Numbered from the stretch's first letter, positions 42,197-54,891 are shown. The stretch is 64,000 nt of DNA from Nannocystis sp. (GCF_016714285.1 NZ_JADJNN010000008.1:68669-132668), one strand, 5' to 3'. Notes: a model not told the origin generated them from the letters alone. Numbers and translations: made by a program.

Positions 42197-42210
42197 GGAT
42201 GGGACATGTC
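42197..42210. promoter_or_regulatory. perfect 12-bp palindrome GGGACATGTCCC containing the sppA1 start codon; member of a recurrent GGGACA/TGTCCC motif family
   Basis: Read directly; see the finding on the GGGACA motif. Confidence 0.3.
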
Positions 42211-44884
42211 CCGAGGTTCAGGATGGGCGGCGCTGGTGGTGCTGACGCTGGCGAGCCCGGTGGTGGCTGCTCCGCCGCTGCTGCCAGGGGACGCGACCGG
42301 GGAGGGTCGCTCGCTGCTGCGGGACGTCGATCGCACGCGCACCAACGTGGCCGGGGAGGCGGACGCGGCGGCGGTGGTGGCCAATCCCGCGAACATGGGC
42401 TTCTTGAAGGCGATCGGCGGGGTGATCGAGGGGTCGTGGACGCGGGCGACGGCGCAGCGGCGCGGCAGCGGGGTCGGGGCCTTCGTGGCGCTGCCGCTGT
42501 CGCTCAAGCTGTTCGGGCGCAGCGTGGCGGAGAGTTTCTTGGCGCTCGGGATCGGGTACCAGCACCTGCGGCCGACCAGCGTGTGGTTCCCGCAGGGGCA
42601 GGTCGCGGCCTACGAGCTCGGCGGGCGGACTGCGGCGGATCTGCCGTATCACAAGGTGTCGCTGTCGGCGGCGCTGCCGTTGATGCGCTGGGCGCCGGGG
42701 CTGGCGCTCGGGCTGTCGTACAGTCGCTTGTGGTCGGCGCGTAACCTGGCGGCGGACGACCTGAACCAGGTCGATCTGGCGATCGGGTATCGGCCGCATC
42801 GGGTGGTCGCGGTGGGGCTGGTGGCGCGGGCGATCAACATGCCGCGGGCGCACGGGGACGCGACGATCGTGCCGTCGCTGCCGGCGGTGGTCCAGCCCTT
42901 CGAGCTCGACCCGGAGCTGGCGCTGCGACCGATCCGCGGGACGCGGGCGCTCGAGCTGGCGGTGGGGGCGAGGATCGTGCCAGTGCAGCCGGTGCTGGAC
43001 CCGCGTTACGCGTTGCCGGTGCTCTCGCCGCGGGTGCGCGTGGAGGCGGGCGGGCGCGGGGTCCGGGTGTTCGCGGAGGGCGAGCGCTACGCGAGCGCGA
43101 CGGCGTCGGGGTCCGCCGCGGGGCTGCGCTTCATGACGGGGGTGGAGTTCGACCTGGCGAATGTCGGGCTGGCGGTGGCGCCTTCGTTCGGCAGCGGTGG
43201 TGGCGGGGCGGCGGGGGTGCAGGGCTTCGCGGGCAAGCTGCGGGTGTCGGCGGAGCGCTATGCGAGCCTGGCCGATCGGACAGGTGAGGCGCTGCGGGTG
43301 GACGTCGGCGCGTACGCGGGGGACCGCGGGATGTTCCGCCTGGTCGAGCTCATCGATCGCCTGGGCGAGCAGCACGGGGCGCTGCTGCTGCTCGAGGTCG
43401 AGACGCTGCGCCTGGGCTACGCGCAGATCGAGGAGGTGCGCGAGGCGCTGCTGCGGCTGCGGGCGCGCGGCGGGCGGGTCGCGGTGTATCTGCGCGGCGG
43501 GGGGATCCGCGAGTACTTCCTGGCGAGCGCGGCGGAGCGGATCTTCAGCCACCCGAACTCGCGGCTGTCGATCGTCGGGCTGCGGGTGGAGGTGTTCTTC
43601 TTCGCCGATCTGCTGGCGAAGCTGGGGGCGCGGGCGGAGTTCGTGCGGGTGGCGGAGTACAAGTCGCGGCCGGAGCAGTTCGAGCTGCGCAGCAGCAGCG
43701 AGCCGTCGGCGACGCAGCGGCAGCTGCTGGTGACGGACACGTGGAATCACCTCGTACGCCTGATCGGGCGCGGACGCGGGAAGACGGAGAAGCAGGTGGC
43801 GGACTGGGTCGACGCGGCGCCGCACGCCCCGGAGGGGGCGCTCGGGGTGGGGCTGGTCGACGAGCTGGCGTACGTCGACGAGCTCGAGGCGAGGCTCGGG
43901 AGCTGGCTCGGGCGGCGGGTGAAGCTGAAGGCGCCGGGCAAGCGACCGGCGCACGCGGAGGCGTACGGGCCGGGGCCGCAGGTGGCGGTGCTGCACATCG
44001 AGGGGACGATGAGCGACGGGGTGAGCCTCGAGATCCCGATCGTCGGCAGCAAGCTCGCGGGGAGCGAGACGCTGGTGAAGCAGATCGACGCGCTGCGGGA
44101 GGATCGCCGGGTGAAGGCGGTGGTCGTGCGCATCGACAGCCCGGGCGGGTCAGTGGCGGCGGCCGACGCGATGACGCGGGCGCTCGAGCGGACCGCGAAG
44201 GTGAAGCCGGTCGTGATCTCGATGGGCAACGTGGCGGCGTCGGGCGGCTACTACGTGGCGACGGCGGGGCAGTACATCTTCAGCGACGCGCTGACGCGGA
44301 CGGGGAGCATCGGGATCTTTCGGCCGAAGGTCGACCTGTCGGGCACGCTGAAGCTGTTCGGCGTCGGTGTCGATGAGATCAGCGTGGGGGCGAAGGCGGG
44401 GCTGTACTCGTGGTGGAAGCCGTACACGCCGGAGGAGCGCGCGGCGGCCCAGAGCGGCATCGAGGCGCAGTACCAGATCTTCGTGCAGCGGGTCGCGCGG
44501 GCGCGGGCGATGGCGCCGGCGGAGGTCGACCGTGTGGCGCGCGGGCGGATCTGGAGCGGGGTGCGGGCGCAGGAGATCGGCCTCGTCGACGCGTACGGCG
44601 GCCTGCGCGAGGCGGTTTTGCACGCGCGGGCGCTGGCCAAGCTGGGGCCGACGGACGGCGAGCTGCGGCACTATCCGCGGCCGCCGAATCTGGTGGAGCA
44701 GATCGACGCGCTGTTCGGGCTGCGCCTGCCGTCGCCCCTGGGGCTGCGTGGCGGGTCCGTGGCTGGGGCGGAGCTCGTCGACGGCGCGCTGCTCTGGGTG
44801 CTGCGGCGTTTACCCGCGACCGTGTGGTGGATGTCGGGACCGGAGCCGCTGGCGATGGCGGAGGAGGTCGTCACCCTGGAGTAA
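42206..44884 (+). CDS. sppA: signal peptide peptidase A-like serine protease (SppA 67K type, two S49 domains) with a ~350-aa N-terminal beta-rich domain of unknown function
   Basis: The signal peptide is ALVVLTLASPVVAAP. The S49 domains carry the catalytic Ser in GNVAASGGYY. It is paralogous to 51800-54442. Confidence 0.8.
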   Translation: MSRGSGWAALVVLTLASPVVAAPPLLPGDATGEGRSLLRDVDRTRTNVAGEADAAAVVANPANMGFLKAIGGVIEGSWTRATAQRRGSGVGAFVALPLSLKLFGRSVAESFLALGIGYQHLRPTSVWFPQGQVAAYELGGRTAADLPYHKVSLSAALPLMRWAPGLALGLSYSRLWSARNLAADDLNQVDLAIGYRPHRVVAVGLVARAINMPRAHGDATIVPSLPAVVQPFELDPELALRPIRGTRALELAVGARIVPVQPVLDPRYALPVLSPRVRVEAGGRGVRVFAEGERYASATASGSAAGLRFMTGVEFDLANVGLAVAPSFGSGGGGAAGVQGFAGKLRVSAERYASLADRTGEALRVDVGAYAGDRGMFRLVELIDRLGEQHGALLLLEVETLRLGYAQIEEVREALLRLRARGGRVAVYLRGGGIREYFLASAAERIFSHPNSRLSIVGLRVEVFFFADLLAKLGARAEFVRVAEYKSRPEQFELRSSSEPSATQRQLLVTDTWNHLVRLIGRGRGKTEKQVADWVDAAPHAPEGALGVGLVDELAYVDELEARLGSWLGRRVKLKAPGKRPAHAEAYGPGPQVAVLHIEGTMSDGVSLEIPIVGSKLAGSETLVKQIDALREDRRVKAVVVRIDSPGGSVAAADAMTRALERTAKVKPVVISMGNVAASGGYYVATAGQYIFSDALTRTGSIGIFRPKVDLSGTLKLFGVGVDEISVGAKAGLYSWWKPYTPEERAAAQSGIEAQYQIFVQRVARARAMAPAEVDRVARGRIWSGVRAQEIGLVDAYGGLREAVLHARALAKLGPTDGELRHYPRPPNLVEQIDALFGLRLPSPLGLRGGSVAGAELVDGALLWVLRRLPATVWWMSGPEPLAMAEEVVTLE

Positions 44885-47082: not shown

Positions 47083-50000
47083 TCAAGGTCCGGCGTCGCG
47101 CGCGGGGGTTGCGGTCTGCGGGGCCGCGTAGGGGAAGATGTCCGAAGCGCGCAGCTCGACCAGCTCGGCCTGCAGCAGCTGGCGCAGCGCGGCGAGGTCG
47201 ATGCGCCGACGATCGGCGAGCACGCTGACGATCGCGGGGGCGGTGAAGTGGTGCTGCAAAGCTTGCAGCTGCGGTGCGGCGAGCGACTGCAGGGTTGCGA
47301 GCTCCCAGGCACGCGGGTCGCCGGTCTCGCCGCGCTCGGCCCATACTTGGACCCAGTCGGGCACGCGTCGCGGGGGGATGCGGGTGGCGACCATCTCGCG
47401 GGTGAGGGCGACGCGGGCCGCGGCGATGCGATCGTCGCCGGGATCGGGGGCACGCAGGATCTCGAGCAGGAGCGTGAGGGCCTCGCGGCTCTTGTCGGCC
47501 TGGGTGCCGAGGCGGCCGAGCAGGGCGGCGCCGTCGATGTCGCGGGCGCCGGCGATGAGCAGGCCGGAGGCGCTGTAGGCGAGGCCGCGGGCCTCGCGGA
47601 TCTGCTGGAACACGAGGCCGCTCATGTCGCCGCCCAAGATCTGGTTGAGCAGGCGCGCCGCGGGGCGATCGCTGCGGGGCAGCGGCGGGCTGGCCAGGGC
47701 GACCTCGATCTGGGCCTGGGCCATGTCGCGGTGGAGGAAGAAAATTGTCGGGGTCGCGAGTGGACGCAGGGCTCGGGGCGGTCGCGGGGCGACGGGCTTG
47801 CCGGCGCTCGCGGGCAGGGCGGTCACCAACGCGTCGGCGATGCGGGGGCCGAAGTAGAGGTGATGACGCGAGCTGTCCGCGAGGACAGCCAGCTCGCGGG
47901 CGAGCTCGGGGCCGCGGGCCTGGCGGAGCTGGCGGTCGCCCGGGCGGGTGAGGATGTCGCTGGCGGGGCCGCGGCGGGCGTACTCGGCGAGGGCCTCGGC
48001 GAGCGCCTCGGGGTCGTCCTGCTCGTCGCGGCGGAGGCTGAGGGTGTTGGCGAGGAGGTCGCGGACGGTGTCGTCGTCGAAGCCGGGGCGGCGCAGCCAG
48101 GTGTCGAGGAGGGCGAGGCTCTGCTCGAGGTGCTCGTCGACGCCGGTGACGAAGATGCGGGTCTGGTCGGCGCCGCAGTCGGTGTCGATGGTGGTGCCGA
48201 GCTGGAACAGGCGGCGCTGGAGCGCCTCGGCGTCGAGGTCACCGGCGCCGGAGAGGGCGAGGAGGTCGAGGGCGTGGCCGAGGAGCGGGCGCTGGCGGGT
48301 GCCGAGCTCGAAGCGGAGGGTGAGGGAAAACAGGTCGCTGCGGCGGTTCTGGGCAGCGATCAGGGGGCCGGCGGGGGTGCTGCGGCGGGTGTAGTCGCGG
48401 CCTTCTTGCAGCCACACGGGGTCGGGGTCGGGGGCGGCCTCGGCGAGCAGCTCGGCGGCGAAGCGGCTGATGCGGGCGGGGTCGATCGGCACCGGGGTGA
48501 TGACCGGCTTGGGCATCTTCGGCGGGTCGTGGCGGCCGCGCTTGCGCACGATCGCTACGTGGTCGGCGCCGAGGTAGGTGGCGGCGACGCGGAGGATGTC
48601 GCCGTGGGTGACGCGGGCCATGGCGGCGACGAAGCGGACGTGCTCGGGCCAGCTGCGGCGCTCGAGGTAGGCGTCGGCGATCCAGCTGACGCGGCCGTTG
48701 TTGGACTCGCGGGCCATCTGCTCGCGGATCTGCTCGTGGAGGACGATCGCGTCGATGTCGGCCTGGGTGAAGGCGCCGGCCTTGAGGTCGGTGATGACGG
48801 AGCGCAGGAGGCGTTCGACCTCGGCGTGGCTCTGGTCGTCGCGGGCGACGCCGGTGAGCGCGAAGTAGCCGCCGTCGACCAGCTGCTCGCCGTGGCCGTC
48901 GGCGTCGGGCAGCTCGCCCGAGAGCAGGAGGCGGACGTTGAGCAGGCCGCTGACGTCGTTGTCGACGAGCTCGGCGAGCACGGCGAGCGCGGGCTCGTCG
49001 GGGTGGCCGGCGGGGACGGTGCGCCAGGCGAGGGTGACCGACTGCTCGCCCTCGGCGGTGATGATGCGCTCGATGCGACCGACGGGGCCGTCGAGGGCGC
49101 CGGGCGGGGGTGGTGGGAGCTGTCCCGGAGACCATGTCGCAAAGGCCAGCTCGAGGGCGGCGAGGGCGGCGGTGGGGTCGAGGTCGCCGGCGAGGATCAG
49201 GGCGGCGTTGTTGGGGAGGTACCAGCGTCGGTGGTAGGCGACCATCTCGGCGAGGGCGGGGTTACGCAGGTGCTCGGCGTCGCCGAGGATCGTCTGGGTG
49301 CCATAGGGGTGGCGCGGGAACAGGGCCAGGCGCAGGGCCTCGTCCATGCGGTCCTCGGGGGTGTCGAGGCTGATGTTCTTCTCCTCGTAGACGGCCTCGA
49401 GCTCGGGGAGGAACAGGCGGAAGGTGGGCGCGGCGAGGCGCTCGGCCTCGACGCGGGCCCACGCGGCGAGGCGCGCGGCCGGGAGGTCGGCCATGTAGAC
49501 GGTGGTGTCGTCGGTCGTGAAGGCGTTGACGTCGAGGATGCCGAGGCCGGCGTAGAGGCGGTCGAGCTCGTTGGGGATCGCGGTGACGGCCGCGGACTGC
49601 GTGGCGGCGTCGATGTCGGCGAGGATCGCGGCGCGCTCGCCGGGCGTGGAGCGCGGGAGCCGATCGTAGAGGGCGGCGGTGCGGGCGAGGTGCGGCCGCT
49701 CGGCGTCGGCGTCGAGGGTGCCGAGCCTGGCGGTGCCCTTGAACATCATGTGCTCGAGGTAGTGGGCGAGGCCGGTCGAGTGGGCGGGGTCGTGGCGGCT
49801 GCCGGCTCGAATCGCGATCCAGGCGGAGATCCGGGGCTGCTCGCGGTCGACGCTGAGGTAGACGGTGAGGCCGTTGGACAGGCGGTGGATCGTGACGGCG
49901 AGAGGGTCGTCGGGGAGCGGGGTGGGGAGGGGGCGGGGCGTCGGGGGCGTAGGCGATCGCGGTGGGGCCGCCGGTGCGGGGGCGACGGGGGGGCGAGGAG

Positions 50001-50090
50001 GGAGGTGGCGGTGCTTTCGGTCATGTCGCTGGGACGAGGGGCGCAGGCCAGGAGGGCCGCGAGGCAGAGCAGGAGGCGGGTGCGGCTCAC
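47083..50090 (-). CDS. M16-family (pitrilysin-like) zinc peptidase, two M16 units; apparent frame disruption between the signal-peptide/lipobox ORF (GTG 50090) and the catalytic ORF
   Basis: The inverted zinc motif is HYLEHMMFKG (HxxEH). The main ORF extends only with an Arg/Pro-rich, signal-less N-terminus. A separate frame starting at 50090 reads MSRTRLLLCLAALLACAP and merges with the main frame in a Pro-rich linker. Confidence 0.7.
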
Positions 50091-50525
50091 GCCGGCGGGG
50101 TTCCTGGGTCGGGGAGGTATTCGTAGGTGCGCTCGATTGCGCGGAGGAGGGCGTCGCAGGCGAGGAGCGTGTTGACGGCGGCTGCGAGCGACGTGTTTGC
50201 GGCGACGACATCAGCTGTCGGATAGCCCTCGAGGAGGGTGTCGTTGTGACGCTTGCCGAGGCAGAGAGCTGATCGGAGGGTGGGCCTCGTCGTCGAGCAG
50301 CGAACGGTCCGCACGCCAGGCTGCGAGCAGCTCGGGGCACCGACAGTCTGCAGTATGTCGGCATAACTGCAGAGCCCGGTCGGTGTTCTGGTAGAGCCAT
50401 GCCTCGAGTTCCCAGTAGGGGACAAGCGTGAAATAGCGGGTCATGAGGCCATCGATCTCCGCGTCAGGTACGCCCTTCAGGGCGAGGCGAACGCGGACGT
50501 GGTCGAGGATCTCGTCACTCACCAC
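50087..50525 (-). CDS. small (~146 aa) helical protein with a C-x-H-x4-C-x-C motif, partner of the upstream ATPase; apparent 1-bp frame disruption near 50270-50290
   Basis: The first frame reads MVSDEILDHVRVRLALKGVPDAEIDGLMTRYFTLVPYWELEAWLYQNTDRALQLCRHTADCRCPELLAAWRADRSLLDDEAHP. The second frame reads ...LGKRHNDTLLEGYPTADVVAANTSLAAAVNTLLACDALLRAIERTYEYLPDPGTPPA*. The GTG start overlaps the ATPase stop, and the stop overlaps the M16 GTG start (GTGA). Confidence 0.4.
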
Positions 50526-51796
50526 AGACCTCGGTTGATCAGGATGTCGCCGATGCTCTCGATGTCGGCCTCATAGCCGCGGTAGAACCTCTCGGCGTCG
50601 TCGCGGGGCATGTTCTGCCAGACGAGCTGCTCGGCGCCGTCGACGAGCTCGGACTTGCAGTTGATGAAGCAGGACTGGACCTGCTCGATCGAGTCGAACT
50701 CGACGTACTCGAAGAGGAGAGGATTCTGGCTGGTGAGGAAGGCTTGGCGGTCGCCGATCGCTTCCATGCAGGCGGCGATCCAGCGGTGGTGGAGGCCGTT
50801 GACGAGCTCGTCGGCGATGACGAAATGTTCGGCCGTGGCAAGATAGTAATAGAAGGCCAGGAGACGTTTTTGGCCGTAGCTGAGGAGATCCTGATCGATC
50901 GTATCGCCGTTGTGGCGCGTGAAGGTGAATGCGGAGCCTTGAACCTCGTAGCTCCGTGATCCCCCTGATGGCGGGACCTTGCTCTGCCGTATCAGGGGTG
51001 CCCAGGTCGCGCTTCGGAATCCGATAAGAGCTGCCACGTCGCCGAGAAACTTCAGACCAGGGCGGTTGACCGATGCATCTGGTTCGGGCGTGACCCAGAG
51101 TTCACCCGCGGGGCTCTTGTGTGCGAGTGGCACCAGCGGGGCGGTATCCAGGGGAAAGAACGTGCTCCGGCGAGGGGTGATGTGCTCACCCGTTTGCACG
51201 ATATCCACCTTGGCGATCGCCGGTGCGCCCGCATTCTGGGACACGGGAGCACGCCCGGTCATGGCCAGATAGGCGTCCAGCGATTCGTCAAAGCGCGACA
51301 GATCGGGGAGGAGCAGGCGCGGGGGAGCTGCGTGAAAGGGGGAGGCCCGGTCAACAAAATTGGGGAACAGAAAGCCGACGCGAAAAGGTGATGCCGACGG
51401 TAGCAAGTGAGACTTGCTGCCATCGAACACCGTCGTCTCGGATGGTGTGCCTGTAATCGTGCACTTGGCAGTCACGTCGTGGCGCGCGAGCCTAACGTCA
51501 TACTTGAACGCAGGTTCTTGGGGCCCGCGAGAGTCATCGCCGGCGGCTAAGTTGCTGATGCGGAAGGTCGCCAGGAACGGATCGGCGTCGAGCGTGTATT
51601 CAATGTCGAATACTTCGCTCTTGAGGGGTGAAAGGTCGTTGCTGGCGACGCAGCTGATCAGGCCAAGCAGCGTCGTCTTCCCCGACCCGTTCTGGCCGAG
51701 CACCAAATTAATCCCGTCGTCGAAGCGCAGCTCCGTGCCGGGGCGGACGTTCCTGTACTGGTGGATCTTGAGGTGTTTGAGCTTCACGCCGGGCAT
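50519..51796 (-). CDS. soluble ABC-type ATPase of the AAA_21/AAA_15-like class (defence/abortive-infection-type ATPase)
   Basis: Walker A is LVLGQNGSGKTTLLGLI. A ~250-aa insert precedes the signature-like LSYGQKRLLAFYYYLA, Walker B HFVIADELVNGL and an H-loop HH. There is no TMD. The lower-GC segment runs from about 50100 to 51800. The start ATG is 3 nt after the sppA2 stop. Confidence 0.7.
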   Translation of the reverse strand: MPGVKLKHLKIHQYRNVRPGTELRFDDGINLVLGQNGSGKTTLLGLISCVASNDLSPLKSEVFDIEYTLDADPFLATFRISNLAAGDDSRGPQEPAFKYDVRLARHDVTAKCTITGTPSETTVFDGSKSHLLPSASPFRVGFLFPNFVDRASPFHAAPPRLLLPDLSRFDESLDAYLAMTGRAPVSQNAGAPAIAKVDIVQTGEHITPRRSTFFPLDTAPLVPLAHKSPAGELWVTPEPDASVNRPGLKFLGDVAALIGFRSATWAPLIRQSKVPPSGGSRSYEVQGSAFTFTRHNGDTIDQDLLSYGQKRLLAFYYYLATAEHFVIADELVNGLHHRWIAACMEAIGDRQAFLTSQNPLLFEYVEFDSIEQVQSCFINCKSELVDGAEQLVWQNMPRDDAERFYRGYEADIESIGDILINRGLW

Positions 51797-51799
51797 GGG

Positions 51800-54438
51800 C
51801 TACTCCACCTCGACGAGGCCGGGGAGCAGGGCGAGGGCCTCGTCTTGCGGGAGGAACAGGAGGGCGAGCGGCAGGCGGGCGAGGGCGGCGGAGAGGGCGA
51901 GGGGGAGCTGTTGTTTGGCGTCGCGGCGCGACTGGAGGCGGGTGCGCAGGCCATCGTCGCCGGGCTGGGGGATGACTTGCTCGAGCAGGATGTCGACGAG
52001 GCGGCGCTGGCGGGGGAAGACGCGGAGGTCGAGCTCAATGCGGGCGGGGACGCCGGCCTTGCTGCGGACGGCGGCGACGGCCTCGCGCAGGCCGCCGAAT
52101 TCGTCGACCAGCTTGAGGTCCTTGGCGTCGGTGCCGGAGTAGACGTGGCCGCGGCCGAGCTCGTCGACGCGCTCGATCGTCAGCTTGCGGCCCTCGGCGA
52201 CGCGGCGGCGAAACAGGTCGTAGACGCGGCGGATGGAGGCGTCCATGCGGGCGCGCTGGTCCTCGCTGAAGGGCTTGTAGAGGCTGGCGATGTCGGCGTT
52301 CTTGCCGCGGCTGAAGGTGCTGGTGGAGATGCCGAGCTTGGCGAGCATGCCGGAGAGGTCGAAGTGCAGGCTGACGACGCCGATCGATCCGGTGATCGTG
52401 GTGGGCTGGGCGAAGATCTGGCGCGCGCCCATGGCGACGTAGTAGCCGCCGCTGGCGGCGACGTCGCCCATGGACACTACGATCGGAGGGCTCTTGCGCG
52501 GGGTCTTCTCGTGAGCCTCCTGTGTGCGCGAGACCTCGCGCCAGATCAGATCGGAGGCGAGGGCGGAGCCGCCGGGGCTGTTGACGCGCAGGACGATGCC
52601 CTTGCACATCGGGTCGGCGCGGAGGTTGCGGAGCTGCTGGACGAGGGTGTCGGCGCCGGCGAACTGGATGTTGAGGAAGGGGATCGTTCGACTCTCGCCG
52701 TCGATGATGGTGCCCTCGACGAGCACGACGGCGGTGTAGGGGGCGTTGGCCCAGGTGGGGAGCTCGGGGTCGGTCTCGCCGAAGCTGGCGAACTTGACGC
52801 GGGCGCCGACGGCGGTGGAGATCGACTCGATGACCTCGTCGCGGTGGACGACCTTGTCGACCAGCTTGTGGGCGAGCGCCTGCTCGGGGCCGTGGGGGGC
52901 CTCGTCGATGAGGCCGCGGACCTGGTTCTGGGCGAGGCCGCGGGCCTGGGCGATGTCCTTCAGGATCTGGGCGTAGGTGTCGTCGAGGATCGCCTCGCGC
53001 TGCTGGCGGTCGGGCTCGGAGGGGCCGCTGCGAGTGAAGCGCTCGTGGGCGCTCTTGTACTCGTTGATGTAGAGGCCCTCGACGTTGACGCCGAGCTTCT
53101 CGAGGGCGCCCTTGAAGTAGAGCGTGGTGGAGGAGAGGCCGAAGGTGGCGAGCTCGCCGGCGGGGTGGATGTAGACCTGCTCGGCGGCGCTGGCGAGGTA
53201 GTAGTCCTTGAGGTCGCCGCCCTCGAGGTAGGCGAAGACGTGGCCGCCGGCGTTGCGGACGCGGATGAGCGCGGCGCGGAGCTCCTGCAGGCTGGCCCAG
53301 CCGAGCTTGGCGGCGCGGGCGTCGAGCAGGAGGATCGATCGCGGGCCGGCTTGCTCGGCGCGCGCGAGGCGTTCGAGCAGGCGGATGAGGGCGCGCTCGC
53401 CTTTCACTGCGGAGAGGTCGATGCGTTCGGCGTCGACCAGGCGCGGCCAGAAGACGCGGCCCTGGCGGGCGCTGCTGAAGCGGGCGGCGAGGCCGAAGCC
53501 GTCGACGCCGCCGGACAGGCCGGCGTGCATGCCGGCGCGGACGGTCATGAGGTCCCACGAGACGGCGAGGGCGACCGAGCCGCGCACGGCCTTGGCGTCG
53601 GCGACGACGGCGTAGGTGTTGCGGTCGAGGATGTGGGCCCGGACCTGCTCGACCTCGCCGGCGAGCTCGATGCCCTGGTAGCGGAAGGCGACGCGGCCGC
53701 GCGGGAGGACGCCGAGGTACTCGCCGAACTGCGGGGTGACGATGTCCGGGTTGCCGCGCCAGCGCGTGCGCACGCCGCCGGCGAGCTCGAGCATGCGGGT
53801 GCCGAGCGGGCGCAGGGCGAGCTCGCCGGTGACGGCGAACTCCTGCGGGAGGCTGCCCTCGGGTTGGAGGTCGGCGGGGCCGAGGCGGGCGACGGCGCCG
53901 ACGGAGGCGTAGTTGCGGATGCGGACGAGGAGGCCGAGGTCGAGGTCGGGGCGGCGCAGGCTCTGGCCGCGGTCGAGCATCCAGTGCAGGCCGAGGCCGA
54001 GGGCGGCGACCTTGCCGTCGCCGGCGCTGAGGCCCCACGAGACCTTGGTGAAGTCGGGGTTCTGGGCGGCGCGGCTGTCGGTGTAGTTGCCGCCGAAGCT
54101 GGGGAGCACGCGCTGGACGCCGAGGCCGGTGGCGAAGCCGAGGCCGAGGTTGAGGCCGAGGAAGCCGCCGACGCCCGAGCCGCGGGTGAACGCGGAGGTC
54201 GATCGGTAGCCCATGATCACGGCGTCGAGGCCCTTCACGGCCGAGAGCAGGGCGGGGTTTAGCTCGAGGCTGCTGGCGTCGCCTTCGCCCGAGTAGTCGT
54301 GGATCGGGCGGTCGATGCCGTCGCTGGCGCCGCGGTCGACGGCGACCGGCTGCTGCGCGGCGGCGGGGGTGGTCAGCGTGGCGACGAGGGCGACGACGAC
54401 GAGCGGGCCCCGTGGACCTGGCTTTGGGGACAGGGTGC

Positions 54439-54442
<4 letters not shown>
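51800..54442 (-). CDS. SppA-like S49 serine protease paralog (two S49 domains) with the same N-terminal beta-rich domain as 42206-44884
   Basis: The signal peptide is LVVVALVATLTTPAAAQQ. It shares RGSGVGGF and S49 blocks with the other paralog, including the catalytic GDVAASGGYYVA. Its start ATG overlaps the GroES-like stop (ATGA). Confidence 0.8.

Positions 54443-54891
<449 letters not shown>

Follow-up and report, generated by a model that had tools for sequence, protein, structure and literature searches.

The stretch of DNA considered here, 64,000 nucleotides (nt) of one strand from Nannocystis sp. (GCF_016714285.1, NZ_JADJNN010000008.1:68669-132668; the window, with positions counted from its first letter), contains a gene for an ABC ATPase of the AAA_21 type followed by what is left of a partner gene. 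With good confidence, we read the locus as a decayed copy of a two-gene ATPase-Toprim module, so far unannotated, that resembles OLD and PARIS and is widespread in the Myxococcota. The ATPase gene is intact; the partner gene, which elsewhere encodes a full-length protein with Toprim-like fold and motifs, has lost its catalytic core here through a deletion and its reading frame through two small insertions or deletions (indels). For the intact family, a role in defence or conflict, argued by analogy with known systems, has slightly better than even chances. An original prediction, made from the sequence of the window, had taken the ATPase and a partner of about 146 residues for a possible undescribed variant of a defence pair; what became of its claims is given with the results that bear on them.

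The ATPase

All genes of the region lie on the minus strand, third-position GC pointing to one coding frame on either side of the locus, and their order, read 5' to 3' on that strand, is sppA, the ATPase gene, an open reading frame (ORF) of 104 codons and the gene for an M16 peptidase. The features of the pair are listed below; L001, L070 and similar labels denote loci in other assemblies, L001 being from the Nannocystis metagenome-assembled genome (MAG) GCA_016717175.1.

50519-51796, minus strand: ATPase gene, 425 amino acids, intact; AAA_21-type ABC ATPase ORF
50897-51646, minus strand: ATPase insert, amino acids 51-300, hypervariable and beta-rich, between Walker A and signature
50087-50525, minus strand: Toprim-like partner remnant (pseudogene), from three-frame translation, tblastn and DNA alignments to L001 and L070
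50514-50517, minus strand: junction of a 345-nt in-frame deletion relative to L070, from the window/L070 alignment
50264-50279, minus strand: two frame-breaking indels, with 1 nt deleted (CACCC-TCC) and the 2 nt CT inserted (CTCTCT versus CTCT)
50472-51700, minus strand: tract divergent from L001, in which the ATPase allele and the partner start are replaced

The 425-residue AAA_21-like ATPase of the original prediction is confirmed, its residues 29-362 matching Pfam AAA_21 (PF13304) over profile positions 1-303 of 304 with 62 bits (cut-off 27). With a protein recorded from Nannocystis sp., the window shows a match of 100% identity. The predicted motifs were all located: Walker A GQNGSGKT at 51674-51697, the signature LSYGQKR at 50864-50884 and Walker B (VIADE) at 50807-50821, with about 265 residues from Walker A to the signature. 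As had also been predicted, no transmembrane domain family was matched by the protein in the Pfam search. The predicted “HH” loop is rejected on position: the histidines concerned (GLHHRW) come directly after Walker B. The H-loop position itself (residues 355-359; 50720-50734, minus strand) reads T-S-Q-N-P, which is invariant in 25 of 25 aligned homologues and has Gln in place of His; another residue invariant among the aligned homologues, His336, lies just past Walker B. The combination of Gln at the H-loop position and His336 suggests that hydrolysis or switching is altered in this ATPase family.

The protein divides into a conserved head (residues 1-50 and 301-425), with a mean majority fraction of 0.69-0.84 and with all the family-invariant residues kept in the window copy, and the insert (residues 51-300), where this fraction is only 0.28-0.47 and where RFDESL (residues 168-173) is the sole conserved motif. 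The insert is predicted by a secondary-structure model to be beta-rich and free of coiled coil; it may be a sensor or a partner-binding domain.

Among the PADLOC models, the AriA model PDLC02980 matches the ATPase at 6.2e-18, with its best stretch confined to residues 272-362, while further AriA models match the N-terminus at 4e-8 and 1e-6; mad3 matches at 1.3e-12, and AbiLi, a weak match, at 9e-9 over residues 8-409. AriA is also the only solved structure in the PDB that matches both lobes of the ATPase by sequence profile (E 3.9e-5). The NCBIfam MAD3 model NF047739 reaches 29 bits, far under its cut-off of 420, the PtuA models match residues 4-59 only and the GajA models only the N-terminal 60 residues or so. 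Because of the AAA_21 score, the PADLOC AriA and mad3 matches and the structure-profile match to AriA, the ATPase is placed by sequence similarity in the AAA_21/OLD-like class, the one at work in PARIS, Septu and Gabija, in agreement with the original prediction. A place among housekeeping proteins of the RecF/RecN type, the alternative considered there, finds little in the profiles: RecF (TIGR00611) reaches 39 bits, where its cut-off is 172, and Rad50 32 bits, where it is 700, both over residues 4-51 only.

The partner family

A full-length partner used as the query in a large protein collection retrieved 73 proteins of 250-280 residues, all of them free of Pfam domains. When 1.84 billion representatives were then searched with a profile, 683 clusters at 50% identity were obtained, and since 609 of these have E values of 1e-10 or less, the partner is, by sequence, a discrete family. 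Among the best 150 of the 683 representatives, nearly all are 240-280 residues long. An alignment of 43 members shows as invariant E13 and D14 (in TEDG), H90, D92 and D94 (in HxDxD) and E150 (in EAWLYQ). In the AlphaFold2 model of the partner, which has a predicted local distance difference test score (pLDDT) of 95.7 and a predicted template modelling score (pTM) of 0.91, strands occupy residues 6-12, 43-47 and 85-90, with E13 after the first strand and D92 and D94 after the third. The full-length partners have in this way the features by which a Toprim domain is recognized, namely, a Glu after strand 1, a DxD after strand 3 and a three-layer alpha/beta fold.

The only Pfam family matched repeatedly by the partner is DUF4276 (PF14103), for which five of the 43 members give weak collinear matches, the best at 14.2 bits and E 0.054, scores of 13-14 bits lying below the gathering threshold of 30.2 bits. 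DUF4276, which has the same Glu and DxD, has been placed in the Toprim superfamily, and Mad4 is one of its homologues (PMC12065111). HNH_3 gave one match at chance level (E 0.051); in the PDB, no match to the partner was obtained with Foldseek or, even at E 10, with a sequence profile. Literature searches found no paper on the ATPase-partner family. Taken on its invariant residues and its predicted structure, the partner family is Toprim-like and unannotated, which overturns the statement in the original prediction that the small protein is not of an obvious nuclease type; the full-length partner is probably a metal-dependent nuclease.

The pair in other genomes

In a scan of one genome per species of GTDB, 63 loci encode the partner, almost all of them labelled Myxococcota, with representatives in Nannocystis, Cystobacter, Archangium, Hyalangium, Sorangium, Polyangium, Byssovorax and Kofleriaceae, and with two copies of the partner in several genomes. 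Of the 63 loci, 61 have an ATPase homologue that terminates at most about 30 nt upstream of the partner, the two exceptions being a locus without upstream DNA and a fragment of the partner, so the pairing of the small gene with this kind of ATPase stands as predicted. On other Nannocystis-type contigs, the gene that follows the ATPase encodes a partner of 254-269 residues; stop and start overlap by 4-7 nt in five called loci and are separated by 11 nt in L002. No third conserved gene was found around the pair. Ser/Thr and histidine kinases were considered for this place and rejected, as their position and strand vary and they are ubiquitous in myxobacteria.

A few copies elsewhere appear decayed. 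In Sorangium sp. So ce1128 (L068:8001-8261), a partner fragment corresponds to residues 36-119 and lacks an ATPase upstream, and at L059:1590-2352 and L066:798-1560, the partner is found in two tblastn pieces.

Each of the eight Nannocystis-type loci in which a flank can be read has the arrangement sppA-pair-M16 (the flanked loci are L001, L002/3, L004/5, L006, L069, L074 and the window). Some 57 other myxobacterial loci are without protease neighbours, and in the three contexts inspected, in Cystobacter, Archangium and Polyangium, the pair stands among unrelated metabolic genes. As this flank pair occurs only in Nannocystis-type loci, gene order indicates that the position between sppA and the M16 gene is an insertion slot specific to one lineage, with no functional link between the proteases and the pair, and that the flanks are outside the module.

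The partner remnant in the window

The original prediction was right about the LCRHTADCRC motif, which is encoded at 50337-50366, and wrong about the length of the partner. The ORF present in the window has 104 codons (50211-50525), and some 146 residues are attained only by joining three frames across a -1 indel (between 50278 and 50277) and the +2 CT insertion (50264-50268). Frame A (50280-50525) starts with a GTG at 50525 or 50522 that overlaps the ATPase stop; the codons for SDQL (50266-50277) are in a second frame; and frame B (50087-50266) stops at a TGA with which the GTG of the M16 gene overlaps. LCRHTADCRC was considered as a metal-binding motif and rejected, its cysteines not being conserved in distant members.

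The joined remnant corresponds to residues 114-254 or so of a full-length partner. A tblastn comparison of a full-length partner with the window aligned residues 104-192 at 80% identity and residues 196-254 at 97%, in two frames, and the C-terminal 140 residues of the L001 partner are nearly identical to frames A and B joined. In the window, the partner's two initial codons, GTGAGT, abut GACGAGATCCTC, and 345 nt are absent relative to L070; 331 nt of L001 (7294-7625) are likewise absent. The deletion takes out partner codons 3-117, which include the Glu and Asp of TEDG as well as HxDxD, and with them three of the four core beta-strands. The window copy is left without E13, D14, H90, D92 and D94, the only remaining catalytic residue being E150. 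Since all the catalytic residues but this one and three of the four core strands are lost, the copy in the window, as read from its sequence, cannot be a functional Toprim; with its N-terminal deletion and frameshifts, it does not fit the working undescribed variant originally envisaged at this locus.

The truncation is a derived state, because the closest ATPase alleles have a partner gene after them: in L070, where the ATPase is 68% identical, the partner is complete (260 residues), and in L069, where it is 66% identical, the contig breaks off after the first 76 partner codons, which include those for TEDG. At its start, the remnant (EILDHVRVRLALKGV) is closer to L070 and L002 than to L001; therefore, the imported tract (described below) carried a partner gene, and the deletion lies inside that tract. 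In the rest of the remnant, about 8% of the codons differ from L001 (seven synonymously, three not) as compared with about 2% in the genes for SppA and the M16 peptidase, a distribution better accounted for by a mosaic of recombination tracts than by simple decay.

Replacement of the ATPase allele

The flanks of the window are 98-99% identical to those of L001 over about 11.6 kb. The proteins encoded compare as follows.

802-amino-acid protein: 98.8% identity between the window and L001
Cpn10-like protein: 100%
SppA: 99.5%
ATPase: 60.4%
M16 peptidase: 97.7%
430-amino-acid protein: 99.1%

Sliding identity to L001 falls from 0.99 to 0.46-0.86 in the divergent tract and then returns to 0.92-0.99, with breakpoints at about 51700, in the conserved Walker A region, and at about 50472, in the partner near L001 codon 128. 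No blastn match was found between window positions 51589-50938 and L001, a genome of 98% average nucleotide identity. Given flanks that are 98-99% identical and an ATPase that is only 60.4% identical, the comparison indicates that the ATPase allele has been replaced by homologous recombination relative to L001.

Six indels not divisible by three, two in the partner and four in the linker of the M16 peptidase, are the only ones in the 11.6 kb. Two further differences from L001, an insertion of 48 nt at about 55052 and a deletion of 12 nt at about 46558, are both divisible by three; apart from these and the cluster at 49935-50278, the conserved flanks have no indels.

Base composition and rate of change

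Sliding GC bears out the lower-GC core that had been predicted, with 0.60-0.64 over 50200-51800 as compared to 0.70-0.76 on both sides. The ATPase gene has a GC content of 0.613, with 71-74% in its surroundings, and a third-position GC (GC3) of 0.775, whereas GC3 is about 0.95 in the genes for SppA and the M16 peptidase; for the pair as a whole, GC3 is about 0.78, against 0.95 or so in the flanks, both in the window and in the three Nannocystis-type loci measured. More generally, 55 of 55 myxobacterial loci (among L001-L067) show a pair with less GC than the flanks, the mean difference being 8.6 points. Because all 55 loci are low and the pair occupies the same slot across the Nannocystis-type loci, the GC dip is, on these comparisons, a property of the module everywhere and provides no evidence of a recent arrival at this site. 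The horizontal acquisition deduced from the GC drop in the original prediction thus survives only as a recent exchange of the ATPase allele.

The low GC of the pair holds even where the pair has kept to one slot throughout a lineage. Candidate causes for it are that the pair is exchanged repeatedly, that selection on codons is weak or that low expression is favoured by selection.

When the other Nannocystis-type loci are compared with L001, the flanking proteins are 62-80% identical, and the ATPase and the partner 44-50%. Low GC, unrelated contexts, multiple and decayed copies and fast divergence would together be the behaviour of an accessory or conflict-type pair.

Comparison with known systems

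PARIS, described as the proposed class 4 of the OLD family, is composed of the ABC ATPase AriA and the Toprim nuclease AriB, that is, of an ABC ATPase plus a Toprim protein encoded by split genes, like the present pair. It differs in that no hidden Markov model (HMM) matches the present partner to DUF4435/AriB, in that the present ATPase has a beta-rich, hypervariable insert and Gln at the H-loop, with the AriA HMM fitting best over residues 272-362 only, and in that the present family is almost entirely from Myxococcota, with none found on viral contigs; in the window, moreover, the Toprim core is deleted. In OLD systems of classes 1 and 2 (P2 Old and GajA), the ATPase and the Toprim domain are fused in one chain, whereas here, they are encoded by separate genes, and, unlike in Gabija, no UvrD-like GajB helicase is found beside the present pair or recurs among its neighbours.

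The pairs of DUF4276 proteins with AAA_15/21 ATPases, including Mad3/Mad4 of MADS, resemble the present pair through the collinear DUF4276 matches of the partner and the mad3 match of the ATPase. The differences are that there are no methyltransferase or other MADS genes near the pair, that the NCBIfam MAD3 score is so low and that the partner is 60-80 residues longer than the 192-position DUF4276 profile and has an extra C-terminal helical domain. AbiL (the ATPase AbiLi with the RloB-like Toprim protein AbiLii) is similar as a two-gene set of an ATPase and a small Toprim protein; the present partner, however, has no AbiLii or RloB match, and the match of the ATPase is weak. Septu, with PtuA and the HNH protein PtuB, differs in that the present partner is without an HNH domain and the PtuA match is limited to the start of the ATPase. 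As for RecF, RecN, Rad50 and SMC, the insert of the present ATPase is beta-rich with no coiled coil, and the scores are below the equivalog level.

Function of the intact module and alternative explanations

By analogy with OLD, Gabija, PARIS and MADS (PMC10568477, PMC11464382, PMC12065111), the ATPase of the intact module would serve as both sensor and scaffold by means of its variable insert. A trigger, such as a phage protein or an abnormality of the DNA, would cause it to release or activate the metal-dependent Toprim nuclease, which would then cleave DNA or tRNA so that the invader or the infected cell would no longer grow. The effector is dead in the window, where the 345-nt deletion removed its catalytic core and the later -1 and +2 indels broke the frame that remained.

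Several observations weigh against the reading of the locus as a decayed member of a defence module of this type. The partner has no significant match in PADLOC, Pfam, NCBIfam or PHROGs and no relative on the viral contigs of IMG/VR, and the contexts inspected in Cystobacter, Archangium and Polyangium are not defence islands. A search for an empty sppA-M16 site found none and one more occupied site; the pair resides stably in an operon-like array in Nannocystis, which is unusual for defence genes of fast turnover. The ATPase cycle may differ from that of OLD or AriA, given the Gln at the H-loop position. Finally, the deletion and indels are known from assembled sequence alone.

This last point bears on the explanation that the deletion and the frameshifts are artefacts of assembly or binning and that the organism carries an intact pair. 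The source assembly is probably a draft or a MAG (the ATPase of the window is recorded on a contig of 418 kb), all six of the indels not divisible by three fall within 350 nt and those in the M16 gene sit in C-rich runs. Yet the 345-nt deletion has a clean in-frame junction with continuous sequence on each side, and a chimeric join would not be expected to leave frame and start codon intact; of the partner indels, one is the loss of a G and the other a change in a CT repeat, rather than errors of homopolymer length, and the rest of the 11.6 kb differs from L001 only by the +48 and -12 indels. We therefore regard an artefact as improbable. A still poorer prospect, in our estimation the least probable of all, is a working, undescribed defence pair made up of the ATPase and a non-nuclease partner of about 146 residues with a Cys-rich LCRHTADCRC. 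In its favour, the ATPase is intact and conserved, the GTG of frame A overlaps the ATPase stop so that a 104-residue product could be translated, and the C-terminal helical half of the partner might still bind the ATPase. Against this, none of the best 150 of the 683 representatives matches only the C-terminal half of the profile, the five catalytic residues and three core strands are missing, 146 residues require two frame corrections and the positions of the Cys residues in the motif vary in distant members.

If the locus is accepted as a decayed copy of an ATPase-Toprim module, what the intact family does may still be explained otherwise than by defence. A housekeeping role, in which the pair would be tied to the envelope proteases SppA and M16 or to DNA repair or chromosome handling, like RecF, Rad50 or the archaeal OLD-family ATPase Cran1, is as improbable to us as an artefact: the protease neighbours are missing from most loci, where the pair is found among unrelated metabolic genes, the RecF and Rad50 HMMs reach only the N-terminal 50 residues or so, and the pair is low in GC everywhere, changes faster than its flanks, has been swapped between near-identical strains and is decaying here. 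A selfish cassette of the toxin-antitoxin type, with a Toprim toxin that the ATPase restrains and without an anti-phage role, is unlikely, if rather less so. AriA has been deposited in the PDB as “AriA antitoxin”, Pfam names AAA_21 after a toxin-antitoxin system, and the loss in the window of the nuclease (the toxin) with retention of the restraining ATPase is the order of decay expected of such a pair; on the other hand, the contexts examined showed no link to plasmids or mobile elements, and a hypervariable insert is more easily explained by the recognition of changing external triggers. A toxin-antitoxin cassette and an abortive-infection defence are inseparable by sequence alone. It is also conceivable, though very unlikely, that the pair represents an immune system of a new family specific to the Myxococcota, in which strains exchange the insert as a recognition cassette, with the conserved Walker A region and the partner gene as recombination anchors, and that the ATPase has been kept here for a task not involving the nuclease, such as that of a decoy or of a regulator co-expressed with the SppA/M16 operon.

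The copy in the window, a broken gene pair, has little value on its own. The family is of wider interest: unnamed in the four databases above, it is now defined by its 683 clusters and by its pairing with an AAA_21 ATPase, and with it the OLD/PARIS-type systems, in which ABC ATPases go together with Toprim proteins, would gain a myxobacterial branch, from a group where phage defence has been little studied. Furthermore, the two genomes, 98-99% identical, offer a clean natural example of the replacement of a sensor ATPase allele together with the loss of the effector, which bears on the turnover of such systems.

Neighbouring genes

The genes on either side of the pair are the following.

51800-54520, minus strand: sppA, S49 signal peptide peptidase, 67K type, 906 amino acids (TIGR00705, 320 bits with a cut-off of 311; Pfam Peptidase_S49)
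47083-50090, minus strand: M16 insulinase-type peptidase (Pfam Peptidase_M16 and M16_C)

The translational coupling of the pair to both proteases in the original prediction is only partly borne out. On the sppA side, the stop TAG (51800-51802) is followed, after a 3-nt spacer, by the ATPase ATG at 51796. On the M16 side, a GTGA stop/start overlap (50087-50090) is present only in a frame that is no longer reached by the remnant. A scan for promoters and terminators found nothing inside the array.

The M16 gene itself looks frameshifted. The ORF frame of the peptidase spans 47083-50400, and the lipoprotein-like signal (VSRTRLLLCLAALLAC) that is read from the GTG at 50090 is out of frame with the catalytic domain. 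Relative to L001, its Pro-rich linker contains indels of -3, -1, -1 and -2 at 49998, 49983, 49968 and 49935, respectively. These may reflect a real inactivation or mis-targeting of the peptidase or else errors in C-rich runs.

A second S49/SppA-like gene (42206-44884, plus strand; 892 residues) encodes a protein 34% identical to the SppA beside the ATPase, and this paralogue is likewise found at the end of L001. Immediately upstream of sppA is a gene of 150 codons (54442-54891, minus strand) whose product contains a poly-Asp run and has, in its homologues, a weak Pfam match to Cpn10; this product is 100% identical to that of L001 and about 80% identical to those of the other Nannocystis-type loci.

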